From NCBI GenBank assembly GCA_965224465.1, contig OZ245049.1, forward strand, positions 240,001-272,000: 32,000 nucleotides of DNA, written 5' to 3'. Position numbers and translations under genes: made by a program. This document shows, in pieces, positions 1,527-26,479 of the stretch. Position 1 is the first letter of the stretch. Each line of letters begins with the position of its first letter. The stretch comes from Flavobacteriaceae bacterium. GTDB lineage: Bacteria; Bacteroidota; Bacteroidia; Flavobacteriales; Flavobacteriaceae. Under the pieces are notes generated by a model, which saw nothing but the letters and a program-made list of their open reading frames with translations, did not search any database and had not been told where the DNA came from.

Positions 1527-1727
1527 ATGGGATCATTTAGAGCTCACCTAGAATTAGGTGGTACCAAATTTGACGTGCTTTTTTCAGAGTACACATTCAG
1601 TCGTTCAACAGACAAAAAAGAAAAAGTATCTTCCAATGTAATCGGTACACTAAAAAACAGTCAAAAAAGGAGTGAGCAGTTGCTTTACTCCTTTTTTTGT
1701 ATTGGGAATTGTTTGCTTTTTGAATAA
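1527..1727 (+). pseudogene. hcp: hcp (tssD) remnant with an internal deletion
   Basis: The first ~40 codons (MGSFRAHLELGGTKFDVLFSEYTFSRSTDKKEKVSSNVIG) match hcp at 11128. The sequence then jumps directly into the post-hcp terminator sequence (ctaaaaaacagtcaaaaaaggagtgagcag). Confidence 0.85.
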
Positions 1728-1827
1728 AAACGTACACTTTTCTACAGTGTTAAATAACAAAATACAAGAGGGATCCCCATAGTTTTTCTAGCTTTAGTAA
1801 TAAAAATAATTGCAAAAAAAAAGAGAT

Positions 1828-2049
1828 ATGAGTGCACCAAAAACCAGCCTAAGTATAGACGGGAAAACCATTACAAGTTTTACTAAAATACACTTAGTTC
1901 AAAAAATAAATGACCATCATTTTTTTGAAATTATTTTAGACAATGATGTGGTAGAAGAAACCGGAGGACATACCATAGATAAATCGAAGGATTGGCTAGG
2001 GAAATCATTAATTATAACTTTTGGCACCGTCGATTTCTTAGGTTATATA
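1828..2049 (+). pseudogene. vgrG: vgrG 5' fragment (first ~74 codons)
   Basis: Identical N-terminus MSAPKTSLSIDGKTITSFTKIHLVQ... to vgrG at 11712. Homology breaks at 2049, about 100 bp before the IS3-family inverted repeat. Confidence 0.85.
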
Positions 2050-2165
2050 GGGTTGGTATAGAGCTTTTTACTGGTAGTGAAGGGGTTTGGTCTTACTACA
2101 AAAGTATTAAGTTGGGTGTTTCAAATTATTGGTATGGAGTTCCTAATAAATATGTGACTATTTTA

Positions 2166-3086: not shown

Positions 3087-3331
3087 AATATATCACGCTC
3101 CATAGTTACGTTACGAAGTTCCTTTTTTAACGCCTTTAGCTCCACTTCTTCATTGGTTAACTCTTTCTTTTTAGAAAAGTCACCCGATTTAATCTCGTAT
3201 TCTCGCTTCCAGCGAGATATCATACTTACATCCAACTCGTAATCTGTACTAATCTGTTTTGATTTCATTCCGGACTTTAATAGTTCTACTATCATTACCT
3301 TGAACTCATTATCATGCTTTTTTCTTCCCAT
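3047..3331 (-). CDS. IS3-family transposase OrfA (HTH)
   Basis: 94 aa, MGRKKHDNEFKVMIVELLKSG.., with a leucine-zipper-like C-terminus. This is a typical IS3 OrfA. Confidence 0.85.
   Translation of the reverse strand: MGRKKHDNEFKVMIVELLKSGMKSKQISTDYELDVSMISRWKREYEIKSGDFSKKKELTNEEVELKALKKELRNVTMERDILKKAVGIFSKSDR
3080..3086 (-). promoter_or_regulatory. A_AAA_AAG programmed -1 ribosomal frameshift heptamer
   Basis: The minus strand reads tta aaa aag in the orfA zero frame, which is the canonical IS3 slippery motif. Confidence 0.7.
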
Positions 3332-3568
3332 AATTCAAATATATAAATTTATAGGCTTAATAAAACCGTCACAACAAATGTAGACACTCCAGTAACTCTC
3401 CTTTAGTATTACCCGCTAAATAATTTTATAACCTAAGAGGGCCAATTAAATTATCTAAAGCTAAATATATACGCTATACGTCTGAAATTGGACAGAATGG
3501 CAAGTTTTATTATATAAAAGATAAAGATATTCAAAATAAATAAAACGATAACATAATTAAATAAACAC

Positions 3569-4170: not shown

Positions 4171-4311
4171 ATAAACACAGAAACACTATAATATGGGTGG
4201 ATGACAAGACAGCAGTTATACAGAAACTAAAACAAGTAATGAATGAGGAGGTTTGTATAAAAATTTAAAAGGAAAAGTGACCGAAATTCCGACACAATTT
4301 AATATTAGGTA

Positions 4312-5883
4312 CTCAAGTTTCGCACTTAGATAGATTTACGCAACCTCTTGATAGTTAAGCTTGTGGGTATTCACTAGGAATCCAAAATCTTCAATATTCG
4401 CTATTATTTTACGTGTAACCATTTCAACATCAATAGATTCAATCATCTTTTCCAAAATGTCAATCACCAAGCTGATAACTGCTAATATCCTGATGTTTAG
4501 CTTATTCTCTATATAATCTTGTTTTAAATCTTTAAACAAGCCTCCTATAGTTTCGTAGGCTTCCATTCTATATCGAATACTGGTGAGTAAATATTGAACC
4601 ATTATAATGCTTATTTGTGCGATTTGAATATCGAAATTAGTAGACTGACATTTTCCAAGACCAAACAACTGCTTAGCTTCTTTAAAAAACACTTCTATGG
4701 ACCATCTGATACTGTATATTTCAATAGCCTTTACAAATTTCAGTGTTGTATCCGTTGATATTAACGTGTGCCATTTGCCATTCTTTCCACGTTTTGAAAT
4801 AAATACAGCAACCTTAAGACCATCAATTTCAGTTATGTAATGATGGTAGTAATAATTGAATTTACGGCATCGTTTTGGTTTTATTTTCTGTTTTTTGAGT
4901 TGTGACAACGTTTTTATCTTTGATCGAACTTCAATCTTACTGTTGTATTTATACATCCCAATAATATGAGTTGAACTACTAATGTTCCGTAGCTTTCTAA
5001 GTAATTTAACACTTGTAAACCAGGTGTCTATTAAGATGTAATCTATGGGGATTTTACGTTTTACAAGCCTTGAGAACATTTGAACTAGCAGGTCTGTTTT
5101 CTTTTTATTGAGTTCCTGATACCTCTTTGCTGCAATTGTTTTACTACATCTTGGAGTTTTCTTTTGAAGCCTACGTTGCTTCGCCGTTAGACCGTATTTT
5201 AATTTTGATGTTTTACTTTCACGATGCAAACTAAAGTCAACAGGGATAAATACACTTCCATTCCAATAACCAGCTACAAGTAGCTTAAAGCCTAGGTAAT
5301 ACGTTTTTGACACATGGTTGTATATTTTTGAAACACCTTCAATTGTCTTTCCTGTTTTAGAAAGATCAGTATCGTCAAAGATCAAGCACTTTGTAGCGTC
5401 TTGAGATGGAGTAAAGAACTCTTCTTTTAATAGATATTGCTTCACAAACTGAGCTAGAAAAACCCTCCAATTTATCTTTTGATTTGCTAGGATTCGATAG
5501 TATGAATCTTTACCCGACTGACCTAATCCCTTGTCTTTACTACTTGTAAGTCCATGAATAGAATCAAATCCGATAATAGGTAAAATTAAAAGTGTAGAGA
5601 TTAAATTACCGAATGAAATCCCCGATTTCTTACACCAACTAAACTTGTTTTTAATTTTATTGAATCCTAAAATATTTAGATGTGCTTGTAGGTATTCTGA
5701 ACTAAGCCAAATCTTATTAAATTTTCCTTTTATCTCCTGTGTTTTTGTGATATCTTCGTGTTCTAGCATGTTTTGTACTTTCTTGTTCGTACTTAAAAGT
5801 ACAATAAAACCAGGGGATTACCTTGGTTTTCATGCTATTTATTTTTACTTAAACACCTGTAAATGATGGGTGCGAAACTTGAG
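4312..5883 (-). mobile_element. IS4/IS1634-like insertion sequence (1572 bp) with a 7-bp target-site duplication
   Basis: Perfect 14-bp terminal inverted repeats: ctcaagtttcgcac (4312..4325) and gtgcgaaacttgag (5870..5883). Flanking direct repeats ttaggta lie at 4305..4311 and 5884..5890. Confidence 0.85.
4336..5769 (-). CDS. DDE transposase (IS4 superfamily type)
   Basis: 477 aa with ..YILIDTWFTS.. and a C-terminal ..IRWSIEVFFKEAKQLFGLGKCQS.. motif, typical of DDE_Tnp_1 transposases. Confidence 0.75.
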   Translation of the reverse strand: MLEHEDITKTQEIKGKFNKIWLSSEYLQAHLNILGFNKIKNKFSWCKKSGISFGNLISTLLILPIIGFDSIHGLTSSKDKGLGQSGKDSYYRILANQKINWRVFLAQFVKQYLLKEEFFTPSQDATKCLIFDDTDLSKTGKTIEGVSKIYNHVSKTYYLGFKLLVAGYWNGSVFIPVDFSLHRESKTSKLKYGLTAKQRRLQKKTPRCSKTIAAKRYQELNKKKTDLLVQMFSRLVKRKIPIDYILIDTWFTSVKLLRKLRNISSSTHIIGMYKYNSKIEVRSKIKTLSQLKKQKIKPKRCRKFNYYYHHYITEIDGLKVAVFISKRGKNGKWHTLISTDTTLKFVKAIEIYSIRWSIEVFFKEAKQLFGLGKCQSTNFDIQIAQISIIMVQYLLTSIRYRMEAYETIGGLFKDLKQDYIENKLNIRILAVISLVIDILEKMIESIDVEMVTRKIIANIEDFGFLVNTHKLNYQEVA

Positions 5884-6637
5884 TTAGGTATATAGGTTTG
5901 TTCGATACAGTGGCAGCAGTACTAAAAATAGATGCGGGGGATTTTTTTACCGATGATGCCTCACATCATGGTATAGATTTAGATGTATCGGGACTAAACG
6001 CACAGCAAGTAGTGTAGTCCATTTAACAGCACAAGACGAGCATCGTAAAAACTTTTCTTTAAATAGCATAAATACGGGCTATACCTTTAGCATGTACGGT
6101 GTACACTCCGATATTGGTGGCGGTTATAATACCGGAATTGAAACAGTAATTTTAGGCCATGGTACAAAAGCAAGCGATAAGACAAGGTTAGAAAACGAAC
6201 GTTTACAATGGATTAAAGAGGGATGGTATTTGGAAGGGGAAATAACAGTAGAAGATAAGAGTGTGAGTACTAGAAAAAAAGTTCGACAAGGTACTCTTAT
6301 TACTACTATAAAACATAGTTACTTGTTAATAGGCACTAAGAAAGTGTTTAAGGACTATACCTTTATCCCATTGCATATTATGCATTTATTGGCTAAAAAT
6401 AGCAATGTTCCTTTTAAGGGGGTGAAAAAAGAGCATAAAGTATCTGATGATTTAGAAAAAATACACGAAATATATAAAACGATTGTGCGTACAGAACAAA
6501 CACCAGAAATAAGCTATGATGATTTTAGATTACTACGCCGTAAATACATCCATCAATCAGCAAATTTCAACCCTATACTTGGGATGTATCCTAATGTCCC
6601 AACTAAAGAACGTAGTGAATTTGAGAATTAAAGAATT

Positions 6638-7267
6638 ATGAAAAAAACAGTATTAGTTATCGTGTTGTTAAGCATTTTTTCATGTGAAAAAACATACGAT
6701 TGGTCGCCTTCAGAAAGTGCACCTAAACACTATCCTGCAAAAATATTACAAAATTACTATCAGTATAAAAATGGAAAAGGTCTAAACATTCCAGGAAGAA
6801 CTGCAGGAGGGAGTGGTTGGGGATTTCCTGGTGGAGTTTACTCTGTAGGAAGTGAATTTAAACCTGTACCAGATAGTTTATTTGTACATTGGTTTTCGGC
6901 AGCAGAAGGTAAATTTTATAAAGGGGCTTTTAAACTACCTGAGAGAAAAATTGATAGTGCTTTAAATGCAGGGAGAAGTATATATATCTATACAGGCTTT
7001 GCTCCACATGGTAGCGTTGTTGTTTTTATGGATGGTGATGGATATATGTATAGTGATGCATTTCAAATTGCACGCTTTAGAGCAAAAGAAGACACTACAT
7101 TAACTCCTCAAAAGTTTTTACTAAATGCAACGAATGTGAAAAATGAGGTAGAGTTTGAAATAAAATATGGACGTCCTTTGTATACAAATCAAGAAATTAT
7201 GATGGATTATATGAGTAAAGAAGATAGTATTTATGTTCGTAAACATGGTATTCCAGATAAATGGTAA
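6638..7267 (+). CDS. Lipoprotein, a short paralog of the amplified Tli-like family and probable cognate immunity of the decayed Tle1-like gene
   Basis: MKKTVLVIVLLSIFSC has a lipobox. GGSGWGFPGGVYSVGSEFKPVPDSLFVHWFSAAEGKFYKGAFKLPERKID aligns with GYGWGLGGTLTG.ISEKRPLPKQLDLVWMSYVENQFYEGHFELDHQKI in the array copies. It starts 6 nt after the pseudogene stop. Confidence 0.65.
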   Translation: MKKTVLVIVLLSIFSCEKTYDWSPSESAPKHYPAKILQNYYQYKNGKGLNIPGRTAGGSGWGFPGGVYSVGSEFKPVPDSLFVHWFSAAEGKFYKGAFKLPERKIDSALNAGRSIYIYTGFAPHGSVVVFMDGDGYMYSDAFQIARFRAKEDTTLTPQKFLLNATNVKNEVEFEIKYGRPLYTNQEIMMDYMSKEDSIYVRKHGIPDKW

Positions 7268-7378
7268 TAATTAAAATAAGATTAGTTCGGATGTTTTTAG
7301 TTTTTTTATGTAAAACCATACAATTAGTTACTTTCCAAATGTTCCTACAAACATTATTATGTGAAATACAATAAAGGT

Positions 7379-8425
7379 ATGAATAAAAAAACAGCAATAT
7401 GCGTAACGTTATGCTTTGTGTTACTATTAATAAACTGTAAAAGTAATAAAATGGAGAAAGAATATATATGGATGGTATCTGCGGATGCTGCAAAAGGTTT
7501 TCCCGCAACCTTTCATTATGGTTATTTAGGTGATACAGGAATAAGAGGAGGAGGAGTTTTGGGTTATGGTTGGGGTTTAGGAGGGACTTTGACAGGGTTT
7601 ATATCCGAAAAGAGACCCTTACCTAAGCAATTGGACCTGGTCTGGATGTCTTATGTAGAAAACCAGTTTTATGAAGGACATTTTGAATTGGATCATCAAA
7701 AAATAGCCGCTATTTTTGAAAAAGGCTATAAAAATGATACCGACAAAGGAGTTGTAATGGACCATGAATTCACTTTTAGAATAAACGTGGCTCCTGGAGG
7801 CACCGTGGCTATTTGGTTAATGGGACAATATGGTTTTCAACGGGAAGTGGGCTTTTACCAAGCAAAAAAAACTTCGGTTGTATGGAGGGAATTTGTACCG
7901 ACTGGATTACAAGATAGAGCATTGTATGTAAAAGAAACGTTGGAAGAAGAACTAACAAAAAAACAGCTTGAGAAATACCAATCAGAAGGTATTCCTTATG
8001 AGAAATGGAAAAATTACCGGCAGCAATTTGAATGGAAAGTTTCTATTGAAGGAAGCTCAAGAGTGATATTCTTAAATTCGGAAACATTTAATGGAGAACA
8101 ATATACTTTAAAAAGTTTTTTTTAAAATATTAACGAAGAGTATATTACATCTGCACTTCCTAGACGATTAGGAATGCAATGGGAGGAAGACCCTACAAAG
8201 GAGGAGATGTTTACTGCATCATTAAAAATAAAGGAAAATGATTTTAAAAAACTAACAAGACTTTTTAAAGAAAATAATAGCAAAGGACATTTTGTGATAA
8301 CACCTTATATGGCTAAAAACGTAAAAAAAGTAAGGTTGTTTTTAGTTACAGGTACTAAAAAGGAAGAATTAGAATTAGAGGAGAATACGGTGCGTCATTT
8401 TCCTGATTATTATAAAAACAAATAG
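7379..8425 (+). pseudogene. Tli-like lipoprotein copy A, with an in-frame TAA at 8123..8125
   Basis: Lipobox LLLINC. The reading frame is the same before and after the stop (7379 and 8174 are both in phase). The stop lies in a divergent segment, KSFF*NINEEYITSALPRRLG, where intact copies read KDVFLDIDNNVIKAALPKELG. Confidence 0.8.
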
Positions 8426-8477
8426 ATTATGAGCGGAATTATTTTTGGAGACTACGAGCCATTAGTACAATAAAGGT

Positions 8478-9524
8478 ATGAATAAAAAAACAGCAATATG
8501 CGTAACGTTATGCTTTGTGTTACTATTAATAAACTGTAAAAGTAATAAAATGGAGAAAGATTATATATGGATGGTATCTGCGGATGCTGCAAAAGGTTTT
8601 CCCGCAACCTTTCATTATGGTTATTTAGGTGATACAGGAATAAGAGGAGGAGGAGTTTTGGGTTATGGTTGGGGTTTAGGAGGGACTTTGACAGGGTTTA
8701 TATCCGAAAAGAGACCCTTACCTAAGCAATTGGACCTGGTCTGGATGTCTTATGTAGAAAACCAGTTTTATGAAGGACATTTTGAATTGGATCATCAAAA
8801 AATAGCCGCTATTTTTGAAAAAGGCTATAAAAATGATACCGACAAAGGAGTTGTAATGGATCATGAATTCACTTTTAGAATAAACGTGGCTCCTGGAGGC
8901 ACCGTGGCTATTTGGTTAATGTGACAATATGGTTTTCAACGGGAAGTGGGCTTTTACCAAGCAAAAAAAACATCGGTTGTATGGAGGGAATTTGTTCCGA
9001 ATGGATTGCAAGATAGAGCATTGTATGTGTCAAATAGACTAAAAAAACGTGTAACAAAAAAACAACTCGAGCAATACCAAAACGAAGGCATTCCTTATGA
9101 GAAATGGAAAAATTACCGACAGCAATTTGAATGGAAAGTTTCTATTGAAAGAAGCTCAAGAGTGATATTCTTAAATTCGGAAACATTTAATGGAGAGCAA
9201 TATACCTTGAAAGATGTTTTTTTAGATATTGATAATAATGTAATAAAAGCAGCTTTACCCAAAGAGTTAGGAATGCAATGGGAGGAAGATCCGGCAAAGG
9301 AGGAGATGTTTACTGCATCATTAAAAATAAAGGAAAATGATTTTAAAAAACTAACAAGACTTTTTAAAGAAAATAATTCCAAAGGACATTTTGTGATAAC
9401 ACCTTATATGGCTAAAAACGTAAAAAAAGTAAGGTTGTTTTTAGTTACAGGTACTAAAAAGGAAGAATTGGAATTAGAGGAGAATACGGTGCGTCATTTT
9501 CCTGATTATTATAAAAACAAATAG
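8478..9524 (+). pseudogene. Tli-like lipoprotein copy B, with an in-frame TGA at 8922..8924
   Basis: ttaatgTgacaatatgg here versus ttaatgGgacaatatgg in all the other copies. This is a single G>T change (GGA Gly to TGA). Confidence 0.8.
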
Positions 9525-9576
9525 ATTATGAGCGGAATTTTTTTTGGAGACTACGAGCCATTAGTACAATAAAGGT

Positions 9577-10623
9577 ATGAATAAAAAAACAGCAATATGC
9601 GTAACGTTATGCTTTGTGTTACTATTAATAAACTGTAAAAGTAATAAAATGGAGAAAGATTATATATGGATGGTATCTGCGGATGCTGCAAAAGGTTTTC
9701 CCGCAACCTTTCATTATGGTTATTTAGGTGATACAGGAATAAGAGGAGGAGGAGTTTTGGGTTATGGTTGGGGTTTAGGAGGGACTTTGACAGGGTCTAT
9801 ATCCGAAAAGAGACCCTTACCTAAGCAATTGGACTTGGTCTGGATGTCTTATGTAGAAAACCAGTTTTATGAAGGACATTTTGAATTGGATCATCAAAAA
9901 ATAGCCGCTATTTTTGAAAAAGGCTATAAAAATAACACAGACAAAGGAGTTGTAATGGATCATGAATTCACTTTTAGAATAAACGTGGCTCCTGGAGGCA
10001 CCGTGGCTATTTGGTTAATGGGACAATATGGTTTTCAACGGGAAGTGGGCTTTTACCAAGCAAAAAAAACATCGGTTGTATGGAGGGAATTTGTACCGAA
10101 TGGATTGCAAGATAGAGTATTGTATGTGTCAAATAGACTAAAAAAACGTGTAACAAAAAAACAACTCGAGCAATACCAAAACGAAGGCATTCCTTATGAG
10201 AAATGGAAAAATTACCGGCAGCAATTTGAATGGAAAGTTTCTATGAAAGGAGAAACACGTTTTATAAACTTAAGGGCAATATTATTTAATGGAGAACAAT
10301 ATACTTTAAAAAGTTTTTTTTAAAATATTAACGAAGAGTATATTACATCTGCACTTCCTAGACGATTAGGAATGCAATGGGAGGAAGACCCTACAAAGGA
10401 GGAGATGTTTACTGCATCATTAAAAATAAAGGAAAATGATTTTAAAAAACTAACAAGACTTTTTAAAGAAAATAATAGCAAAGGACATTTTGTGATAACA
10501 CCTTATATGGCTAAAAACGTAAAAAAAGTAAGGTTGTTTTTAGTTACAGGTACTAAAAAGGAAGAATTAGAATTAGAGGAGAATACGGTGCGTCATTTTC
10601 CTGATTATTATAAAAACAAATAG
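9577..10623 (+). pseudogene. Tli-like lipoprotein copy C, with an in-frame TAA at 10321..10323
   Basis: Same stop-bearing segment as copy A, preceded by a unique SMKGETRFINLRAIL segment. Confidence 0.8.
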
Positions 10624-10632
10624 ATTATGAGC

Positions 10633-10728
10633 GGAATTATTTTTTTTAGCTAGGCGGAAATTATAAAGATAGCTATCGTTCTGTTTATCAACAACACTAG
10701 AACGGAAAAGCAACCTATTTATATCGGG
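10633..10728 (-). repeat. Repeat X copy 3, directly abutting the truncated Tle1-like 5' tag of array block 1
   Basis: attatgagcggaattattttt|tttagctaggcgg. The 12-nt ggaattattttt is shared between the tle1-like 5' end and repeat X. Confidence 0.6.
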
Positions 10729-11127
10729 GAGAGTAAAAACTAAGTGATTGTAAGTTAACTTAATACTTGATTTAAGAGAATGTGAGGTATTTTATAAAAA
10801 AAATAATACTACAACAATCTAGTAAATACTCATGCTGGCGCTCTTTTTGTTTTATATCGCTGTATTTTTTAATTAATTTATTTGGTAAAAAGAAATTAAA
10901 CTACTAATTTGGTGATAGATATGGCGATTTAGAATCTTATTCTTCTTTCCAAAATAAACTGTTATATAATATCTATGCTCCGTATTTTCTTTACGAAAGC
11001 TTTAAAAATTTCAGTTTTTTTGTTCGAGAATTTGTTCTAAACGCACCATATAAAATCAAAATACTTTTATACTAGTAAAAAGGTGGATTGATTTTAAAAA
11101 AGAATTGCTAATTTAAATAAAAAATTA

Positions 11128-11526
11128 ATGGGATCATTTAGAGCTCACCTAGAATTAGGTGGTAAGGAATTTGATGTGCTTTTTTCAGAGTACACATTCA
11201 GTCGTTCAACAGACAAAAAAGGAAAAGTATCTTCCAATGTAATCGGAGGAAGAGTTACAGTAGAAATTGAATCAACAGAGGATACTTCAGTAATTGAAGC
11301 CATGTTAAACAGTCAATTTAAATCTATAGAAGGGAAATTAGTCTACAAAAAAACAGACGAAGATTCTAAAATGAAAGAAGTAGAATTTAAAAATGCCTAC
11401 TTAGTACATTTTACCGAAACTTTAGACGTAAACGGAGACATTCCAATGAAAATTAGATTTACAGTTTCAGCTGAAGAAATTATCATCGGAAATGCAGCCA
11501 TCGATAATCGTTGGCCAAAAGCATAG
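11128..11526 (+). CDS. hcp: Hcp / TssD tube protein (Bacteroidota T6SS-iii type)
   Basis: 132 aa. MGSFRAHLELGGKEFDVLFSEYTFSRSTDKKGKVSSNVIGGRVTVEIESTEDTS.. matches the remembered pattern of Bacteroidetes TssD proteins (..L.VGGKEYDVL...Y...R..D..G.PSS.V.GG.I.VE.ESTEDT..). Confidence 0.85.
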   Translation: MGSFRAHLELGGKEFDVLFSEYTFSRSTDKKGKVSSNVIGGRVTVEIESTEDTSVIEAMLNSQFKSIEGKLVYKKTDEDSKMKEVEFKNAYLVHFTETLDVNGDIPMKIRFTVSAEEIIIGNAAIDNRWPKA

Positions 11527-11548
11527 TAGTACCCTAAAAAACAGTCAA

Positions 11549-11582
11549 AAAAGGAGTGAGCAGTTGCTTTACTCCTTTTTTT
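11549..11582 (+). terminator. Rho-independent terminator after hcp
   Basis: aaggagtgagcagttgctttactcctt hairpin followed by a T-run. The same element occurs at about 1667..1698. Confidence 0.65.
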
Positions 11583-11711
11583 GTATTGGGAATTATTTGC
11601 TTTTTGAATAAAAACGCACACTTTTCCACAGTATTAAATAACAAAATACAAGAGGGATCCCCATAGTTTTTCTAGCTTTAGTAATAAAAATAATTGCAAA
11701 AAAAAAGAGAT

Positions 11712-13529
11712 ATGAGTGCACCAAAAACCAGCCTAAGTATAGACGGGAAAACCATTACAAGTTTTACTAAAATACACTTAGTTCAAAAAATAAATGACCA
11801 TCATTTTTTTGAAATTATTTTAGACAATGATGTGGTAGAAGAAACCGGAGGACATACCATAGATAAATCGAAGGATTGGCTAGGAAAATCATTAATTATA
11901 ACTTTTGGCACCGTCGATTTCTTAGGTTATATAAGCTCCATAAACCTTGAAAATAAGGATGGACATAATGGTAATTTAATCATAAAAGGATATTCGCCCA
12001 CCATACTTTTACAAGGAGGAAAACAATTGTGTTCTTGGCGGGAAAACACCTTAGAAGGTATTGTAAGACAAACCATGGGAGACTTACGAGTTCCGTTGCT
12101 CATAAAACCTACATTTAACGAAGTCATAGAATACCAAGTACAATACAACGAAAATAATTATGATTTTTTACAGCGATTGGCAAAACAATACAACGAATGG
12201 TTTTATTATAACGGCGTACAATTAATATTTGGGAAACCACCCCAAGAAGAAGCTGTAGCAATCGAATACGGCAGAGACCTGTCCGAAATACAATTAGAAA
12301 TAAAAATAAAGGATCACGGACAAACAAAATTTTCTTACAATGCTACCAATAACAGATTAATAAGCACTTCGTCCAAGGATCAAGTAGCAGGATTAAACGA
12401 ACTGGGCTCACATGCCTTTTATACCTCTTTGGAAACCTACAAAAATCCAAAAAATGGTTTCACCAATATTGAGACTGAAATGAAATCTCAAATAGACGAT
12501 TTAGTCGCACGTAAACAAGCCACATTAAGTGCAGGATTGCATGTAATGAAAGGAAAAAGTACCAAGCAGGGCTTAACCGTAGGAACTGTGATTAAGGTGA
12601 GATCTGCCAAGGTAGACGAGGAAACTAGCTTTGACATTAAAAATTATGGGGAGTATATGATTACCAATATAAGCCACCATGCTACCGAACGTTCGGAATA
12701 TTACAACACCTTTGAGGCAATTCCGTCTGGAATTGCAGTACTCGAAGAACCCAAGGTATCCTTTCCCAAGGCATCAAACCAACTAGCCACGGTTATGTCT
12801 AATGCCGACCCCAGAGAAATGGGACGCGTACAAGTACGTTTTAATTGGCAAATACACACCATGAAAACTTCCTGGATACGTGTAATGACACCCGATGCTG
12901 GAAGCAGTAAAAACCATGCAAAAAATAGAGGACATGTTTTTATCCCCGAAGTAAACGACCAGGTAATGGTAGGTTTTGAATACAACGATCCCAACAGACC
13001 CTTTGTGATGGGGAGTATGTTTCACAACGAAAATGGCGCAGGAGGAAAACAAGACAATAATATAAAATCCATCATTACTAAAAGTGGGCATCGTATTGAG
13101 TTTAATGATACGCCAAGCAGTGAAAGTATTACCATTACGGATAAAAAAGGCAATCATATAATTATAGATACCAAAAATGAAACAATTAGTATCAATGCAC
13201 TCAAGGATATTAATATTACTGCGGGAGAAAATATAAATATCAGCGCAGGTAAAAATATAGTGGTAAATGCGGGAGAGAATATTGATGAGACGGCTGGACG
13301 GAATATATCTTCTAGAGCAGGGAAGGATATTTTACAAAATGCGAGTGGAGATATAAAGGAGAAGGCAGATAATATTAAGCAAATAGCCGACAATAAGTTT
13401 AATATACAATCTAAAGAATCTAAGGAGTATTCAGACGTGATAAATGTGCAAAGTTTAAAAAACGAAATAAATATGCTGAGTGCAAAAAAAGTAATTATTA
13501 ATTCTAAAGAAAAATCTAATTTATTTTAA
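11712..13529 (+). CDS. vgrG: VgrG / TssI spike protein
   Basis: Gp5/VgrG OB-fold block GRVQVRFNWQ..SWIRVMTPDAGS..GHVFIPEVNDQVMVGFEYNDPNRPFVMGSMFH, then a repetitive beta-helix-like tail (INITAGENINISAGKNIVVNAGENIDETAGRNI). The ATG at 11712 is preferred over the TTG at 11694. Confidence 0.9.
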   Translation: MSAPKTSLSIDGKTITSFTKIHLVQKINDHHFFEIILDNDVVEETGGHTIDKSKDWLGKSLIITFGTVDFLGYISSINLENKDGHNGNLIIKGYSPTILLQGGKQLCSWRENTLEGIVRQTMGDLRVPLLIKPTFNEVIEYQVQYNENNYDFLQRLAKQYNEWFYYNGVQLIFGKPPQEEAVAIEYGRDLSEIQLEIKIKDHGQTKFSYNATNNRLISTSSKDQVAGLNELGSHAFYTSLETYKNPKNGFTNIETEMKSQIDDLVARKQATLSAGLHVMKGKSTKQGLTVGTVIKVRSAKVDEETSFDIKNYGEYMITNISHHATERSEYYNTFEAIPSGIAVLEEPKVSFPKASNQLATVMSNADPREMGRVQVRFNWQIHTMKTSWIRVMTPDAGSSKNHAKNRGHVFIPEVNDQVMVGFEYNDPNRPFVMGSMFHNENGAGGKQDNNIKSIITKSGHRIEFNDTPSSESITITDKKGNHIIIDTKNETISINALKDINITAGENINISAGKNIVVNAGENIDETAGRNISSRAGKDILQNASGDIKEKADNIKQIADNKFNIQSKESKEYSDVINVQSLKNEINMLSAKKVIINSKEKSNLF

Positions 13530-13530
13530 A

Positions 13531-13701
13531 ATGGCCATTATAAAGAGAGCAAAAAATATTGAAAAAATAGCGTATAACAAATATGTTATTATGTCTAAGG
13601 AATTAAATAAAATAGCAGATACTATTACCATTGAGTCTGCAAAGGAGAGTATGACAATAGCTGGAGCCACAATGGTAAATATTAAAGCTAATAATAAGTA
13701 A
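13531..13701 (+). CDS. Small 56-aa ORF immediately after vgrG (not in the supplied ORF track)
   Basis: The ATG lies 1 nt after the vgrG stop. MAIIKRAKNIEKIAYNKYVIMSKELNKIADTITIESAKESMTIAGATMVNIKANNK has an alternating pattern reminiscent of the VgrG tail. Coding status is uncertain. Confidence 0.3.
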   Translation: MAIIKRAKNIEKIAYNKYVIMSKELNKIADTITIESAKESMTIAGATMVNIKANNK

Positions 13702-13722
13702 TGTTTTCTTAATTCATTAAAT

Positions 13723-14148
13723 ATGAGTGATACTTTTATTGTTGTAAGTACGTGTTTTTTAGGGTTTATTGTATATGTATTTGTTTTTAAGGCGGCATTA
13801 AAATTTAAAATGAATACGAACCTGTATCTTTTGTTGTTAGCCTATTTTATAAGTCCTATATCATTTGAAATTACGTTTCAAATTTTTATTTACATACTTT
13901 TCCAAACATATGCTAAGAAACCACAACTGGATGTAATTATTTATTGGTGGATTCTAATTAAAATTCTGTTAATGATGGTCTATTTTTTAATGGATCTTTC
14001 TTCTGGGGAATCAAGTGGTTTTGGTAGTGATGCTGCTGGTTTTTCAATGGTGTCAGGAAAGGATTTTATCTTTCAAATTGTTTATCAGATGGTGGTTTTG
14101 TTGCTAACGATTATTGTCTTTTTTATACATGAAAATAAGATGATTATA
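13723..14148 (+). CDS. Multi-pass membrane segment (142 codons) with no stop, reading in frame into Tli-like copy D
   Basis: About four hydrophobic helices (FIVVSTCFLGFIVYVFVF, LYLLLLAYFISPISF.., IIYWWILIKILLMMVYFL, VYQMVVLLLTIIVFFI). There is no stop codon before the ATG at 14149. Confidence 0.4.
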
Positions 14149-15195
14149 ATGAATAAAAAAACAGCAATATGCGTAACGTTATGCTTTGTGTTACTATTAA
14201 TAAACTGTAAAAGTGATAAAATGGAGAAAGAATATATATGGATGGTATCTGCGGATGCTGCAAAAGGTTTTCCCGCAACCTTTCATTATGGTTATTTAGG
14301 TGATACAGGAATAAGAGGAGGAGGTATTTTGGGTTATGGTTGGGGTTTAGGAGGGACTTTGACAGGGTCTATATCCGAAAAGAGACCCTTACCTAAGCAA
14401 TTAGACTTGGTCTGGATGTCCTATGTAGAAAACCAGTTTTATGAAGGGCATTTTGAATTGGATCATAAAAAAATAGCCACTATTTTTGAAAAAGGCTATA
14501 AAAATAACACAGACAAAGGAGTTGTAATGGATCATGAATTCACTTTTAGAATAAACGTGGCTCCTGGAGGCACCGTGGCTATTTGGTTAATGGGACAATA
14601 TGGTTTTCAACGGGAAGTGGGCTTTTACCAAGCAAAAAAAACTTCGGTTGTATGGAGGGAATTTGTACCGACTGGATTACAAGATAGAGCATTGTATGTA
14701 AAAGAAACGTTGGAAGAAGAACTAACAAAAAAACAGCTTGAGAAATACCAATCAGAAGGTATTCCTTATGAGAAATGGAAAAATTACCGGCAGCAATTTG
14801 AATGGAAAGTTTCTATTGAAGGAAGCTCAAGAGTGATATTCTTAAATTCGGAAACATTTAATGGAGAGCAATATACCTTGAAAGATGTTTTTTTAGATAT
14901 TGATAATAATGTAATAAAAGCAGCTTTACCCAAAGAGTTAGGAATGCAATGGGAGGAAGATCCGGCAAAGGAGGAGATGTTTACTGCATCATTAAAAATA
15001 AAGGAAAATGATTTTAAAAAACTAACAAGACTTTTTAAAGAAAATAATTCCAAAGGACATTTTGTGATAACACCTTATATGGCTAAAAACGTAAAAAAAG
15101 TAAGGTTGTTTTTAGTTACAGGTACTAAAAAGGAAGAATTGGAATTAGAGGAGAATACGGTGCGTCATTTTCCTGATTATTATAAAAACAAATAG
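14149..15195 (+). CDS. Tli-like lipoprotein copy D (intact frame)
   Basis: 348 codons with its own signal peptide and lipobox MNKKTAICVTLCFVLLLINC. It is a mosaic of the copy A middle segment and the copy B 3' segment. Confidence 0.75.
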   Translation: MNKKTAICVTLCFVLLLINCKSDKMEKEYIWMVSADAAKGFPATFHYGYLGDTGIRGGGILGYGWGLGGTLTGSISEKRPLPKQLDLVWMSYVENQFYEGHFELDHKKIATIFEKGYKNNTDKGVVMDHEFTFRINVAPGGTVAIWLMGQYGFQREVGFYQAKKTSVVWREFVPTGLQDRALYVKETLEEELTKKQLEKYQSEGIPYEKWKNYRQQFEWKVSIEGSSRVIFLNSETFNGEQYTLKDVFLDIDNNVIKAALPKELGMQWEEDPAKEEMFTASLKIKENDFKKLTRLFKENNSKGHFVITPYMAKNVKKVRLFLVTGTKKEELELEENTVRHFPDYYKNK

Positions 15196-15247
15196 ATTAT
15201 GAGCGGAATTTTTTTTGGAGACTACGAGCCATTAGTACAATAAAGGT

Positions 15248-16300
15248 ATGAATAAAAAAACAGCAATATGCGTAACGTTATGCTTTGTGTTACTATTAAT
15301 AAACTGTAAAAGTAATAAAATGGAGAAAGATTATATATGGATGGTATCTGCGGATGCTGCAAAAGGTTTTCCCGCAACCTTTCATTATGGTTATTTAGGT
15401 GATACAGGAATAAGAGGAGGAGGAGTTTTGGGTTATGGTTGGGGTTTAGGAGGGACTTTGACAGGGTCTATATCCGAAAAGAGACCCTTACCTAAGCAAT
15501 TGGACTTGGTCTGGATGTCTTATGTAGAAAACCAGTTTTATGAAGGACATTTTGAATTGGATCATCAAAAAATAGCCGCTATTTTTGAAAAAGGCTATAA
15601 AAATAACACAGACAAAGGAGTTGTAATGGATCATGAATTCACTTTTAGAATAAACGTGGCTCCTGGAGGCACCGTGGCTATTTGGTTAATGGGACAATAT
15701 GGTTTTCAACGGGAAGTGGGCTTTTACCAAGCAAAAAAAACATCGGTTGTATGGAGTGAATTTGTTCCGAATGGATTGCAAGATAGAGCATTGTATGTGT
15801 CAAATAGACTAAAAAAACGTGTAACAAAAAAACAACTCGAGCAATACCAAAACGAAGGCATTCCTTATGAGAAATGGAAAAATTACCGGCAGCAATTTGA
15901 ATGGAAAGTTTCTATTGAAAGAAGCTCAAGAGTGATATTCTTAAATTCGGAAACATTTAATGGAGAGCAATATACCTTGAAAGATGTTTTTTTAGATATT
16001 GATAATAATGTAATAAAAGCAGCTTTACCTAAAGAGTTAGGAATGCAATGGGAGGAAGATCCTGCAAAGGAGGAGATGTTTACTGCATCATTAAAAATAA
16101 AGAAAAATGATTTTAAAAAACTAACAAGACTTTTTAAAGAAAATAATAGCAAAGGACATTTTGTGATAACACCTTATATGGCTAAAAACGTAAAAAAAGT
16201 AAGGTTGTTTTTAGTTACAGGTACTAAAAAGGAAGAATTAGAATTAGAGGAGAATACGGTGCGTCATTTTCCTGATTATTATAAAAAAAATAAATTATGA
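15248..16300 (+). CDS. Tli-like lipoprotein copy E (intact), putative cognate immunity protein of the Tle1-like effector
   Basis: 350 aa with a lipobox. Its stop overlaps the effector start (ATGA at 16297..16300). Confidence 0.8.
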   Translation: MNKKTAICVTLCFVLLLINCKSNKMEKDYIWMVSADAAKGFPATFHYGYLGDTGIRGGGVLGYGWGLGGTLTGSISEKRPLPKQLDLVWMSYVENQFYEGHFELDHQKIAAIFEKGYKNNTDKGVVMDHEFTFRINVAPGGTVAIWLMGQYGFQREVGFYQAKKTSVVWSEFVPNGLQDRALYVSNRLKKRVTKKQLEQYQNEGIPYEKWKNYRQQFEWKVSIERSSRVIFLNSETFNGEQYTLKDVFLDIDNNVIKAALPKELGMQWEEDPAKEEMFTASLKIKKNDFKKLTRLFKENNSKGHFVITPYMAKNVKKVRLFLVTGTKKEELELEENTVRHFPDYYKKNKL

Positions 16301-17988
16301 GCGGAATTATTTTTGGAGACTACGAACCGAGTAAAACACCTATGGAAAGAGGGGCGGATGCTATTATAGGGGTGTTTTTTGATGGTACAGGAAATAACCG
16401 TAAAAATGTACGTGCCTTTAAAGCTTTTAAAGGTGAAGATATTAAAATTGATGCAGGTGAAAACAAGCAAAAATATCTAGATGCTTACCACAAACATGCC
16501 GATAAAAATGATGGTCACAATAGTTATGAGGCAGACGAATCAAATGTATCACGCCTACAACCATTATATGTTGTGGATAAAACAAAAATATTCAGTTTAT
16601 ATGTAGAAGGTATCGGTACGGAGAGTTTTAAAGGTGACTCTGGTGTTGGGAGTGCTTTGGGTACAGGTGATACAGGTATTATAAAACGGGTAAAAAATGC
16701 ATGTGAAACAATAGCTAAAAAAACATTAAACGGAATAAAATCGAAATCTAAAGACACCAAAGGAAACATGCTTATAGAAAAAGTAATCTTTGATGTGTAT
16801 GGGTTTAGTAGGGGAGCAGCCGCCGCGAGACATTTTGTAGCTCAGGTTAAAAGCAAAGGGAGCTATAACAAATATAAGGATAGGAACGGAGAAACACATA
16901 TTGTGGATATTCCAGACTTTGGGTACTTAGGATATGCCTTAAAAAAGGCTAAAATAACCATAAATACTATTGAAATACGCTTTGCTGGATTGTATGATAC
17001 GGTGTCCTCTTATGGTATAATACATAAAAACGACCATCAGCAGTTAGCCTTAAATCAGTTACACCATGTTAAAAAAACGATCCATTTAATAGCACAAGAC
17101 GAAATACGGTATAATTTTGATTTGACAGATATTACGAGTGCGGGATATAAAGGACTTACCATTAGTTTTCCAGGTGTACATTCTGATATTGGAGGTGGCT
17201 ATTTACAAAATATAAAAGAAGAAAAAGTGTTGTTATGGGATCTAAATGATGATGGCGAAGAAGCTTTAAAAAAACACAACTATTTTATAGCAGAAGGATG
17301 GTACAAAGCACATGAAATAGATTTAATAGATGGTAAAATAAGAGATGAAATTATAGGGAGAAGAATAAACATAACCAATAAGTACAGTGTATTGCCATTG
17401 CAGTTAATGGGGAAATTATCGGATGAGTACAAGGCTAAAATTGATATAGATGCTTTAGAAGATGATTTTAAAACAGAAGGGGCTTTATTAAAAGAAGTGG
17501 AAAAACGTTTAAAGGCACAGTTTTCAGCAAAATATACTAAAAAAACAACACGTATTGATTTGTTAAAATTTGATTCCGTTGAAAATGAAAAGGAGCTATT
17601 AGCAGAAAAACAAAGAGAATTAAAGGAAATAGCCAGTAAGTGGAAAATACAGCTTAAGACTTTAAATAATAAGCCTATAAAACCCTTATACAATGCTTGG
17701 AACTACGCTCCTAGAATTGACAAAATAAGAGTTGTGCAAAATAAACGAATGATAGCAAAAGATACTGTTCCTCTTGATACGATTAATTATTCTGCATTAA
17801 GTGATAACCAATTACTACGAGCTCTGCGTAATAAGTTTTTACACGTCTCTTTTGATTATACCAATGCAACACCAACTAGCTGGTGGCAATATATAGGTGT
17901 GTTACATGAAATTATACGTTATCAAGAGCCTATGAAACCAAGAGAAAATGGACAGCGAGTGGTCTATGAAGATTTAAAAAAATATTAG
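16297..17988 (+). CDS. Tle1-family (DUF2235 alpha/beta-hydrolase) T6SS phospholipase-type effector
   Basis: GVFFDGTGNN N-terminal motif, GxSxG as YGFSRGAAAARHF, AGLYDTVSSYG, and HSDIGGGY. All are hallmarks of DUF2235/Tle1. The position next to hcp-vgrG and lipoprotein genes fits. Confidence 0.8.
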   Translation: MSGIIFGDYEPSKTPMERGADAIIGVFFDGTGNNRKNVRAFKAFKGEDIKIDAGENKQKYLDAYHKHADKNDGHNSYEADESNVSRLQPLYVVDKTKIFSLYVEGIGTESFKGDSGVGSALGTGDTGIIKRVKNACETIAKKTLNGIKSKSKDTKGNMLIEKVIFDVYGFSRGAAAARHFVAQVKSKGSYNKYKDRNGETHIVDIPDFGYLGYALKKAKITINTIEIRFAGLYDTVSSYGIIHKNDHQQLALNQLHHVKKTIHLIAQDEIRYNFDLTDITSAGYKGLTISFPGVHSDIGGGYLQNIKEEKVLLWDLNDDGEEALKKHNYFIAEGWYKAHEIDLIDGKIRDEIIGRRINITNKYSVLPLQLMGKLSDEYKAKIDIDALEDDFKTEGALLKEVEKRLKAQFSAKYTKKTTRIDLLKFDSVENEKELLAEKQRELKEIASKWKIQLKTLNNKPIKPLYNAWNYAPRIDKIRVVQNKRMIAKDTVPLDTINYSALSDNQLLRALRNKFLHVSFDYTNATPTSWWQYIGVLHEIIRYQEPMKPRENGQRVVYEDLKKY

Positions 17989-17990: not shown

Positions 17991-18932
17991 ATGCAACAAC
18001 AACCATCCAATCAGAACCAAACGCTACCCTTGGTAAAAGAAGGGCCTAAAAGGCTGCGTTTTTATAAAAACGGGAAAATAAAAAACCAAGCTAGGTATGC
18101 GCATCGCACCTATGGAGTTTCTATTGGATATACGGATGGAAAAACCATAGATTATTTGTTGGAAGTAAAATGCATTAAAAAGGTTGGGGATTGTTTGTAT
18201 TATGAGCTCCATAGAAAACGGTTTTTTAAAAATGGCGAACAAGTACATTCGTTTATGGACACACTCGCCGAAAAAAGTATTGGCTGTTTGTATCCATTAG
18301 TGTTAAAAGTAGCCGATAATGGCGAAGTCATAGGCATAGAAAACCAAGTAGAAATAGAAAAACGATGGAAAGAAAATCGTAAAAAGATAGCAAAAACGCA
18401 CCAAGGGGAAATAGTAGAAAGTTATTTTAAAACCATGGACAAGGCTGTAAGTAGCGCCGCTAATTTGGCTAAAAGTCTCGCAAACGATATGGTTTATAGT
18501 TTGCTGTTTTCTAATATATACATTGCCTATACAAAAGAATACCAAGTGGAGCTAGTAAAAAAAACACCTTTTATTGCAAACTATAAAACATTGGTATTTA
18601 AAGGGCAGCAGCGAATAGAAACGCATGTAGCTAAAAATAATCGGTGTAGTATTTATTACAAGGGAGCATTACAAGCTACAAATCAACTGAAAGAAGGGGA
18701 TTTAAAGATACACTATCAATTGGATGCCCAAGATTATGGACTGTTAAGAGTTGATGGAGAAGCAACTTATATATTGGGAGCACATAAAAAAATAATCACC
18801 TTTAAAATAATAGCACAAAAAACGCTTGATAAAACCAAAGAAAGCACCATAAAAGCACACAAAGCATTAGGTATTTATAACGACCCCAACGAACCTGAAC
18901 CTAAATGGTACCAACTTTGGAAATATCTATAA
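17991..18932 (+). CDS. Hypothetical 313-aa cytoplasmic protein (no signal peptide) between the effector and the PAAR-like gene
   Basis: The ORF starts 2 nt after the tle1-like stop. No motif recognised. Confidence 0.6.
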   Translation: MQQQPSNQNQTLPLVKEGPKRLRFYKNGKIKNQARYAHRTYGVSIGYTDGKTIDYLLEVKCIKKVGDCLYYELHRKRFFKNGEQVHSFMDTLAEKSIGCLYPLVLKVADNGEVIGIENQVEIEKRWKENRKKIAKTHQGEIVESYFKTMDKAVSSAANLAKSLANDMVYSLLFSNIYIAYTKEYQVELVKKTPFIANYKTLVFKGQQRIETHVAKNNRCSIYYKGALQATNQLKEGDLKIHYQLDAQDYGLLRVDGEATYILGAHKKIITFKIIAQKTLDKTKESTIKAHKALGIYNDPNEPEPKWYQLWKYL

Positions 18933-18943
18933 AAAAGAAAAAA

Positions 18944-19414
18944 ATGGGAAAAGCACTAGTATGTCAAAAAGCAGAATGCGAATGTGAACACGGTAATATG
19001 CCGGATAAAATAATATCTGTAAGTAAGCATCGGCAATATGTAAACGATGTGGAAGGCGAAGAAAAAATGATCGTTTCTACGATGGATATCGGCCAACCTT
19101 TTGAAAAAAAAACCTTTGGGACTTGTAAATTACAACCTACGCCAAGTGGTTACAAAGTATGCCAACCACAAATAACAAAATGGGAGGATTTTTACGATAA
19201 AGTAACACTGGACAACGGAGGGAATCCCATTTTAGAAAACAGCAAAGCCATCTGCCCCATTGCAGGAGTTGCTTGTATTTCTATTACTTTTCATGGACAA
19301 AAAGGAGAAATGACAGAACAGCATCAAGAGGAAGCCGACCCCGAAGTACAAAACATGCTAAATCCATTGGCTAGTAGTACGGAACAAGGAGAAGAACCAC
19401 AGGAGAGATATTAA
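18944..19414 (+). CDS. DUF4280 PAAR-like spike-tip protein
   Basis: MGKALVCQKAECECEHGNMPDKI...FGTCKLQP......CQPQITKWEDFYDKV...GNPILENSKAICPIAGVACISITFHGQ matches the DUF4280 Cys / FG.C / W / C.P / GQ pattern. It has an acidic C-terminal tail. The ATG at 18944 is preferred over 18905. Confidence 0.75.
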   Translation: MGKALVCQKAECECEHGNMPDKIISVSKHRQYVNDVEGEEKMIVSTMDIGQPFEKKTFGTCKLQPTPSGYKVCQPQITKWEDFYDKVTLDNGGNPILENSKAICPIAGVACISITFHGQKGEMTEQHQEEADPEVQNMLNPLASSTEQGEEPQERY

Positions 19415-19425
19415 AATTTAAAAAC

Positions 19426-22572: not shown

Positions 22573-22581
22573 AAATATAAA

Positions 22582-23535: not shown

Positions 23536-23569
23536 TAAAAAAAGTCTAACAGTTTGTTAGGCTTTTTTT
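23536..23569 (+). terminator. Rho-independent terminator closing the effector operon
   Basis: agtctaaca-gtt-tgttaggct hairpin (one G-U pair) plus ttttttt. A decayed copy lies at about 26346..26380. Confidence 0.65.
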
Positions 23570-23572
23570 ACC

Positions 23573-26437: not shown

Positions 26438-26479
26438 ATGTTTATATTATCCCAAAAGTATACCTGTAAATTTAAATAA

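Follow-up and report, generated by a model that had tools for sequence, protein, structure and literature searches.

A split array of Tli-type immunity genes in a Flavobacteriaceae type VI secretion island, with signs of nested duplication, allele shuffling and decay

A 32,000-nucleotide stretch of a Flavobacteriaceae genome (NCBI GenBank assembly GCA_965224465.1, contig OZ245049.1, positions 240,001 to 272,000 of the forward strand) carries five copies, A to E, of tli, a predicted lipoprotein immunity gene, upstream of tle1, which encodes a predicted type VI secretion system (T6SS) phospholipase effector. The whole stretch is called the window below, and positions are counted from its first letter. 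The most probable reading, to which we give a probability of about 0.72, is that of a T6SSiii effector island that underwent two nested duplications, with gene conversion among the tli copies and decay of the upstream island copy. The initial annotation had described one tandem array of five units. All five copies could be located, but they form two sub-arrays, of three and two, placed in what are probably two copies of a larger duplicated island that runs from hcp to tli.

The tli unit is about 1099 bp long. Successive copies start 1099, 1099, 4572 and 1099 bp apart, and 1098 bp separate the tle1 stub between D and E from the real tle1 start. Copies A-C occupy 7379-10623 and copies D-E 14149-16300; the intervening 3473 bp (∼3.47 kb) hold hcp, vgrG, a 56-codon open reading frame (ORF) and a conserved 142-codon membrane-protein ORF. 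The exact period proposed earlier is therefore correct within A-C and within D-E but fails from C to D. The copies are listed here with their haplotypes, which give the allele at each of four variable blocks:

7379-8425, plus strand: tli copy A; haplotype 1-1-1-s; TTA-to-TAA stop at codon 249 (8123-8125)
8478-9524, plus strand: tli copy B; haplotype 1-2-2-i; GGA-to-TGA stop at codon 149 (8922-8924), within the DUF2931 domain
9577-10623, plus strand: tli copy C; haplotype 2-2-3-s; the same codon-249 stop as in A; a private divergent block at nt 669-707
14149-15195, plus strand: tli copy D; haplotype 2-1-1-i; intact, in the ancestral position beside the membrane-protein ORF
15248-16300, plus strand: tli copy E; haplotype 2-2-2-i; intact, 350 aa, overlapping tle1 by 4 nt

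The junctions between copies record how the unit was formed. The tle1-start motif ATGAGCGGAATTNTTTTTGGAGACTACGAGCC occurs at 8429, 9528 and 15199 in addition to the true gene start at 16297, against a chance expectation of 0. The junction sequence (J) agrees with the tle1 start at 31 of 32 nt and has 12 nt (TACAATAAAGGT) in common with what lies upstream of copy A. The duplication endpoint lies within the first 11-13 codons of tle1, in agreement with the early endpoint first proposed. Also present, as described before, is the mini-ORF MSGI[I/F]FGDYEPLVQ*, which terminates 4 nt ahead of the next tli start; the simplest view is that it came about incidentally, through the position of the duplication endpoint. 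The junctions and the shorter stub are as follows:

8429-8477, plus strand: junction A/B; 32 nt of the tle1 start, ATTAG, then 12 nt identical to the sequence upstream of A; mini-ORF MSGIIFGDYEPLVQ followed by a stop
9528-9576, plus strand: junction B/C; the same as junction D/E over the 86 nt compared, including an ATT TTT variant
15199-15247, plus strand: junction D/E
10627-10644, plus strand: tle1 stub after copy C; 18 nt, of which the last 12, GGAATTATTTTT (10633-10644), are the microhomology that joins it to the hcp upstream region

The claim that the effector start lies in every inter-copy junction thus stands for A/B, B/C and D/E but not for the step from C to D. Past copy C, tle1 is reduced to ATGAGCGGAATTATTTTT (18 nt) and fused to the hcp upstream region, and copy D is preceded directly by the membrane-protein ORF, without a stub. 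At the other end of the array, a 1-nt deletion near the 3′ end of copy E creates a 4-nt ATGA overlap with tle1. A simple tandem amplification, with one array, one period and one junction type, was considered and rejected on the unequal spacings, the hcp and vgrG genes between C and D, and the odd junction after C.

The tle1 start has one further property. Its nt 11-18 (TATTTTTG, 16307-16314) fit TAnnTTTG, the −7 promoter motif of Bacteroidota. The A/B stub (8439-8446) retains the motif, 30 nt ahead of the tli B start, but the B/C and D/E stubs have ATT TTT there and no longer fit it; a scan for TAnnTTTG gave a −7-like match in the tle1 start and the A/B stub only. The match is probably a coincidence in AT-rich sequence. 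A scan for sigma-70 promoters and terminators returned fewer matches than shuffled sequences, sigma-70 being the wrong promoter type for Bacteroidota.

The odd junction after copy C can be read from three related sequences. The native hcp upstream region at 1021-1050 runs AAGAAT-GGAATTATTTTT-TTTAGCTAGG (in full, AAGAATGGAATTATTTTTTTTAGC). The hybrid that begins at 10627 runs ATGAGC-GGAATTATTTTT-TTTAGCTAGG (in full, ATGAGCGGAATTATTTTTTTTAGC), and native tle1, from 16297, runs ATGAGC-GGAATTATTTTT-GGAGAC (in full, ATGAGCGGAATTATTTTTGGAGAC). The microhomology between tle1 nt 7-18 and the hcp upstream region amounts to 12 nt (17 of 20 nt are similar), and a tandem duplication with its endpoints inside it would yield exactly these three sequences. 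The native hcp upstream region recurs at 1021-1050, ahead of a decayed hcp-vgrG fragment, which points to a larger hcp-to-tli duplication whose upstream copy has decayed. The parts of that upstream copy ahead of the tli array are:

1019-2049, plus strand: decayed hcp island head; native hcp upstream region (GGAATTATTTTT at 1027-1038), hcp′, a hairpin and vgrG′
2050-3400 (outer ends approximate), minus strand: insertion sequence (IS) of the IS3 family; orfB 2166-2999 and orfA 3047-3331; rve, rve_3, HTH_21 and HTH_Tnp_1 domains
4262-6631, plus strand: tle1′ remnant, a paralog of the lipase gene, 5′-truncated and frameshifted, in two parts (4262-4310 and 5890-6631), located by tblastn of Tle1 against the IS-excised sequence
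4311-5884: IS4-like element inside tle1′, complete, with its transposase on the minus strand (DDE_5/DDE_Tnp_1), 15-nt perfect terminal inverted repeats and a 5-bp target duplication, TAGGT
6638-7267, plus strand: tli′, an intact gene for a 209-aa DUF2931 lipoprotein (PF11153, 3.9e-20), ∼26% identical to A-E (tblastn)

In this upstream copy, hcp′ keeps its first 39 codons (1528-1645), followed by a 282-nt internal deletion and the post-hcp hairpin. The 5′ fragment of vgrG (∼1828-2049) stops where the IS3-family element starts. Self-BLAST aligned 1019-1645 with 10625-11246 at 96.5% identity and 1645-2049 with 11529-11933 at 98.5%. Instead of a vgrG 3′ end followed by the small ORF and the membrane-protein ORF, this copy has the IS3-family element, two small ORFs without assigned function, tle1′ with its IS4-like insertion, and tli′. 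The tle1′ remnant keeps GLFDTV and GVHSDIGGGY and is without the GxSxG region; tli′ would be its orphaned immunity gene.

The two sub-arrays also differ in coding state. All three upstream copies (A, B and C) carry nonsense codons; only D and E, next to tle1, are intact. The initial annotation had the stop allele of A and C right but overlooked the in-frame stop of copy B at codon 149. With nonsense alleles in all three of the upstream copies, immunity is probably left to two working genes, D and E; the others are most likely to be pseudogenes, in an island copy that is redundant. The haplotype nearest to the outgroup, an ortholog in the metagenome-assembled genome (MAG) NORP270, is that of copy E. 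Ancestral states are kept in the 5′ third of D, which has eight private sites between nt 67 and 331, including at least one that is ancestral (K108). The two intact genes differ in the helical linker of their products, where one has KETLEEEL (D) and the other SNRLKKRV (E).

Across the first 1040 nt of the unit, the five copies have 68 informative sites, and these fall into contiguous blocks that support incompatible groupings: AB versus CDE at 221-363, AD versus BCE at 495-612, AC versus BDE at 720-817 and BD versus ACE at 901-993. Copy C adds 21 private sites, 20 of them clustered at 669-707. The four-gamete test is failed by 1235 of 2278 pairs of informative sites, a permutation test of the pairwise homoplasy index (PHI) type gives p ≤ 1e-4, and the Hudson-Kaplan minimum (Rm) is at least 3, that is, at least three recombination events. 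These tests on the aligned copies rule out a simple-tree allele pattern. They bear out the earlier statement that no single duplication tree can explain the copies, whose allele combinations were all found as first listed. The description of the array as 'actively recombining' is sound in that segments were exchanged by recombination or gene conversion, but nothing dates the exchanges as recent or ongoing.

The variable blocks are more diverged than the backbone. Synonymous divergence (pS, the proportion of synonymous differences) is 0.43-0.54 in blocks 2 and 4, with a ratio of nonsynonymous to synonymous divergence (pN/pS) of ∼0.4, and 0-0.05 in the backbone; in block 3 pN/pS is 1.8. Whole genes compared with the NORP270 ortholog have a pS of 0.34-0.41. 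Since the blocks are at least as diverged as the ortholog of another organism, they are old, diverged coding alleles, from lineages no closer than that, shuffled into a nearly identical backbone, and not mutations that arose after duplication. The s allele resembles other family members (…SALPR…) save for its single stop. Two other sources of variation were tried and rejected. A compensated frameshift does not account for the private block of copy C, as no register shift restores identity, and a diversity-generating retroelement is contradicted by block substitutions that involve all four bases in both directions and are not adenine-specific. No reverse transcriptase domain was found among the scanned ORFs of at least 60 aa.

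The pairing of copies across the sub-arrays may bear on the order of the two duplications. In self-BLAST the best two-unit match joins A-J-B to D-J-E (97.0%), and the alleles of blocks 2 and 3 likewise group A with D and B with E. Such pairing is to be expected if two tli copies, already differentiated, were present in the unit when it was duplicated, in which case copy C would have been gained later through unequal crossover.

The effector gene itself is as follows:

16297-17988, plus strand: tle1; Tle1-family phospholipase gene, by PF09994, a match to Tle1 of enteroaggregative Escherichia coli (EAEC) and motifs

Its 563-aa product carries a Tle1-like catalytic domain (PF09994, 2.7e-17, 63.4 bits against a cut-off of 27). 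A phmmer search matched the Tle1 chain of EAEC in its solved complex with VgrG (6sjl_D, E = 1.4e-27) and also 9j3f_A, a Tle1 phospholipase domain protein. The translation contains GFSRG (the GxSxG nucleophile motif), GLYDTV and GVHSDIGGGY, which by analogy would mark the catalytic triad sites. The genes hcp (11128) and vgrG (11712) lie upstream on the same strand, and the product is thus a predicted T6SS-delivered phospholipase effector.

The immunity protein is likewise recognizable. Copy E matches DUF2931 (PF11153, 6e-22, aa 25-207), the family that had been put forward as a candidate. Its N-terminus, MNKKTAICVTLCFVLLLIN-C-KSNK, reads as a hydrophobic h-region followed by a lipobox-like LINC, and Tli is accordingly predicted to be a periplasm-facing lipoprotein. 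The DUF2931 match, the lipoprotein signal and adjacency together support the original description of a Tli-type lipoprotein immunity gene beside a Tle1-type lipase, as does PF09994 for the effector. An AlphaFold2 (AF2) model of Tli, with a predicted local distance difference test (pLDDT) score of 78, begins with a beta sandwich at the N-terminus, which a helical linker (aa 180-213) connects to a C-terminal beta domain (aa 217-342). In this model block 2 falls in the linker and blocks 3 and 4 in the first strands of the C-terminal domain, a location compatible with blocks 2-4 acting as specificity surfaces. A sequence search of solved structures returned no homolog of Tli, and a Foldseek search of the model against the PDB returned no informative relative (best E 5.5e-3, template modelling (TM) score 0.13). 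The C-terminal domain (∼140 aa) is rare: a search of 1.84 billion representative proteins showed it in only five clusters, and apart from the truncated copy from the present locus these are two-domain Tli proteins of 340-358 aa. Among 5.8 billion clusters only nine full-length Tli homologs were found, and PF11153 is present in 9/9. The rest of the source genome includes a paralog with 43% identity (P0008).

Related islands help to separate old features from new ones. MAG NORP270 (Flavobacteriaceae; locus L002) and a metagenome contig (L001) have the order hcp, vgrG, 56-aa gene, tli, tle1, 313-aa gene, DUF4280 gene and a gene for a large protein, with one tli; their nucleotide identity to the window island is ∼80-86%. 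In NORP270 the T6SSiii core genes TssO and TssR lie directly upstream of hcp. Aquimarina muelleri has the membrane-protein ORF followed by a single tli and tle1, and tli and tle1 are also adjacent in loci L001-L004. A metagenome scan for further relatives found two distant loci only. Between the window and NORP270, amino-acid identity is 68% for Tle1, 83-85% for Tli and 74% for the 313-aa protein, the effector being the less conserved partner.

A close parallel in architecture is found in Tenacibaculum ovolyticum DSM 18103 (L003), which has hcp, vgrG, the membrane-protein ORF, two tli copies and tle1 in the same order. There too the inter-copy junction bears ∼33-38 nt of the genome's own tle1 start, with 51 nt from the stub ATG to the next tli ATG, against 49 nt in the window. 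Unlike the window, T. ovolyticum has only two tli copies, 1082 bp apart, both intact and ∼93% identical, with 76 differences in 1026 nt. In its junction the 3′ part matches the end of the native membrane-protein ORF, and its island is not duplicated. Its Tli proteins are ∼55% identical to those of the window. The two copies differ most at the equivalent of block 4 and also around aa 66-71. No clear trans-species allele pattern was seen when the blocks of the window and T. ovolyticum were compared by eye. The stub architecture may reflect either an old duplication, with concerted evolution and collapse to one copy in some lineages, or a hot spot for the endpoints. At the end of the T. ovolyticum island (L003 18544-20680) there is a second tandem duplicate pair, of ∼350 aa, 1081 bp apart and ∼91% identical, and tandem duplication seems common in these islands.

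The following history would account for these observations. The island would be a Bacteroidota-type (T6SSiii) hcp-vgrG island with, as cargo, a Tle1-family phospholipase and a DUF2931 Tli that has an extra C-terminal beta domain. In a first step, tli would have been duplicated in tandem as a 1099-bp unit, joining about nt 32-39 of tle1 to a point about 12-17 nt upstream of the tli start, after which unequal crossing-over between units could alter the copy number. In a second step, the hcp-to-tli unit, from the hcp upstream region to tle1 nt 18, would have been duplicated with its junction at the 12-nt microhomology. The downstream island copy (hcp, vgrG, membrane-protein ORF, tli D, tli E and tle1) is intact and presumably working. 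Its D and E products would be periplasmic lipoproteins that neutralize incoming Tle1, delivered by sister cells, or self Tle1, and the linker difference between them may add dosage or cover more than one Tle1 variant. The upstream copy would meanwhile be decaying, through the deletion in hcp, the cut of vgrG by the IS3-family element, the splitting of a foreign tle1′ by the IS4-like element and the nonsense codons of tli A-C. RecA-type recombination and conversion among the five copies would have homogenized the backbone and reshuffled four or five short blocks of old alleles.

Several points weigh against this history. The 3′ 12 nt of junction J match the sequence upstream of A and not that upstream of D, yet D holds the ancestral position. 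Two explanations offer themselves: the D/E junction came from the upstream array through out-of-register conversion, or a later rearrangement has its endpoint at the left boundary of A. A search upstream of copy A for a remnant of the membrane-protein ORF found none. Moreover, the hybrid junction between C and hcp would arise equally well from a deletion. In that account, which is possible though we hold it to be the lesser likelihood, two tandem tli-tle1 loci existed and the sequence between GGAATTATTTTT in the first tle1 and its counterpart upstream of hcp was lost. J would have formed in the context of A with a full tle1 downstream, which explains why it bears the sequence upstream of A. 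However, the hcp-vgrG fragment at 1019-2049, whose 500-nt upstream region is the same, calls for an extra, earlier duplication, and J must still be transferred into the D/E locus, whereas tandem duplication yields all three sequences in one event. Finally, A and C still code for the whole DUF2931 domain in 248 aa, and these products might retain function. It is accordingly conceivable, if unlikely, that the array is a selected functional repertoire in which most or all copies, including A, C and tli′, are expressed and cover different Tle1 variants of competing strains, with the blocks as specificity determinants that selection holds distinct as the remainder of the gene is homogenized. The variable blocks do lie in the least conserved regions of the family, the linker and the first strands of the C-terminal domain; the T. 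ovolyticum copies differ most at corresponding places (the block 4 equivalent and aa 66-71); pN/pS in block 3 is 1.8; and Tle1 diverges faster than Tli between relatives. Short DUF2931-only proteins such as tli′ exist, and multi-copy DUF2931 immunity genes of Aeromonas are reported to need joint action (PMC7245790). Nonetheless, three nonsense codons, independent or shared, fall exactly in the decaying half of the island, that of B cuts inside DUF2931, blocks 2 and 4 are without sign of positive selection, and no full-length family homolog lacks the C-terminal domain.

Readings in which the defective copies act as donors are far less probable. One supposes that the two-copy arrangement tli-stub-tli-tle1 is ancient, with a concerted backbone, specificity blocks kept diverged and defective copies serving as a conversion reservoir for the expressed genes; it is based on the sharing with T. 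ovolyticum, where both junction endpoints agree within a few nucleotides. We consider this improbable, but if true it would amount to cassette-like tuning of immunity to variant Tle1 toxins. A slightly more doubtful variant treats A-C as unexpressed cassettes that donate short tracts to expressed D and E, which would diversify immunity specificity much as pilS/pilE or vls cassettes diversify antigens. The layout fits, with defective copies upstream, intact ones by the effector and mosaicism in blocks; D has block 2 in common with A and block 4 in common with B, and junctions B/C and D/E are the same over 86 nt. Against it, no recombinase was found among the ORFs scanned with Pfam (IS transposases only), no initiating element was seen, the small ORFs in the 7.3-16.3 kb interval are all parts of tli copies, and the island copy that holds the upstream copies shows visible decay of unrelated cause. 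The pattern, which is known from one genome only, is explained by RecA-dependent conversion of the ordinary kind between repeats that are 92-97% identical. The least probable reading is that copy number or the phasing of allele blocks results from repeat mis-assembly. Identical stretches of up to ∼330 nt do separate some blocks, and such repeats are a classic source of collapsed or chimeric assemblies. An artefact is nevertheless unlikely, because the locus proteins are recorded from one contig of 5,241,564 bp, an indication of a finished genome, and because private sites are present in each copy and the sub-arrays are anchored by unique flanks. In addition, the gaps between blocks are mostly under 150 nt, inside read or read-pair length, and T. 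ovolyticum independently has a two-copy array with the same kind of stub.

The genes around the arrays complete the picture of the intact island copy:

10645-11127, plus strand: hcp upstream region, with one ∼90-nt repeated intergenic element inside
11128-11526, plus strand: hcp (TssD, Bacteroidota type; PF17642, 2.4e-40), followed by a hairpin with a T-run at ∼11552-11585
11712-13529, plus strand: vgrG; ATG at 11712, listed ORF from TTG at 11694; Phage_base_V, Phage_GPD, DUF2345 and VgrG models
13531-13701, plus strand: 56-codon ORF, kept downstream of vgrG in relatives; L001 has a 56-aa gene in the same position
13723-14148, plus strand: membrane-protein ORF of 142 codons; also between vgrG and tli in T. 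ovolyticum and A. muelleri, at ∼44% identity (tblastn)
17991-23535, plus strand: downstream gene string encoding a 313-aa protein, a DUF4280 (PAAR-like) protein, a 1048-aa protein and a 317-aa protein, syntenic in relatives

By ORF coordinates, the genes from vgrG to the 317-aa gene are tightly packed, with gaps of 0-21 nt save for the 49-nt junction D/E. The 56-codon ORF has no Pfam match; BLAST homology to L002 runs through it and extends to 13750. The membrane-protein ORF ends with a stop in T. ovolyticum and A. muelleri. Here it is stopless and in frame with tli D, giving a 490-codon frame (13723-15195) that gene callers report as one protein.

The ∼90-nt intergenic element occurs four times in the window, at 628-690 (partial), 1043-1126, 10649-10735 and 28393-28496, with the sequence TAGCTAGGCG…GTTCTGTTT.TCAACAAC..AGCACG.AAA.CAACCTATTTATATCGG. 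Two of its copies sit just upstream of the two hcp copies. An Rfam scan of the window, this element included, gave no match; the element may act as a regulatory element or small RNA, or may be a repeat resembling a miniature inverted-repeat transposable element (MITE).

Further variation lies downstream of tle1. The segment 20411-23568, which covers the 3′ two-thirds of the 1048-aa gene and the 317-aa gene, is 97.5% identical to NORP270 (L002 15131-18288), whereas the remaining shared island is only ∼80% identical; the difference suggests that a toxin-domain/immunity cassette was exchanged horizontally in recent times. Farther downstream, the 1048-aa gene and its 3′ end and flank recur as partial duplicates (20422-20753 with 25992-26323, 22122-22580 with 23569-24036, and 23509-23624 with 26319-26438, at 94%, 69% and 90% identity, respectively). 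They surround an rve (integrase-core) transposase gene with an HTH_38 domain (24182-25186, minus strand) and resemble orphan cassettes of C-terminal toxin and immunity parts. A tandem repeat (31554-31994; unit 158 nt, 2.8 copies, 88% matches) reaches to 6 nt from the window end.

Arrays of this general kind have precedents. In EAEC-type E. coli, Aeromonas (PMC7245790) and Vibrio, lipoproteins of the DUF2931 family have been established or proposed as immunity proteins against Tle1. Klebsiella pneumoniae HS11286 has four tandem tli1 genes with 94% nucleotide identity (PMC5649205), and Aeromonas has zero to three DUF2931 immunity copies, with two DUF2931 genes accompanying Tle1AH in A. hydrophila (PMC7245790). 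The P. aeruginosa tle1 locus holds Tli1a and Tli1b, the latter a proposed pseudogene (PMC13133936). The window resembles the Tle1-Tli1 modules of EAEC, A. hydrophila, V. cholerae (Tle1Vc/Tli1) and K. pneumoniae in having a DUF2235/Tle1 lipase with GxSxG beside one or more DUF2931 genes and vgrG, and tandem immunity genes of high mutual identity occur there too. It differs from them in its Flavobacteriaceae host, its T6SSiii-type Hcp and the extra ∼140-aa Tli domain, the function of this subfamily being predicted. It also differs in having the immunity genes upstream of the effector, an array split by island duplication and three nonsense copies. The duplicated immunity gene by tle1 with one proposed pseudogene recalls P. 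aeruginosa, where, however, the two copies are of the DUF3304 and not the DUF2931 type and lack effector-start stubs (PMC13133936). In V. cholerae, according to Kirchberger et al. 2017 (PMC5361080), effector displacement forms orphan arrays in which T6SS immunity genes are kept after effector loss, and homologous recombination makes mosaic clusters. The tle1′ remnant with intact tli′ (4262-7267) fits these orphan arrays, whereas A-E differ from them as duplicates of the resident tli, not modules of foreign origin, that carry resident tle1 stubs and are mostly inactivated.

Tandem DUF2931 tli arrays are thus already known in Proteobacteria, and the window is a tidy example rather than a new system. 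What is particular to it is the Flavobacteriaceae/T6SSiii setting, the rare two-domain Tli subfamily and an unusually legible history of nested duplication. The locus extends DUF2931/Tle1 immunity arrays from Proteobacteria to the T6SSiii islands of Flavobacteriaceae. With both junction types preserved, it is a clean sequence record of how a T6SS immunity locus may grow and decay, and it also records the IS-driven erosion of a spare copy and block-wise gene conversion between paralogs. If the blocks set Tle1 specificity, the five natural chimeras would form a ready panel for mapping it; otherwise, they would reflect ordinary repeat dynamics.

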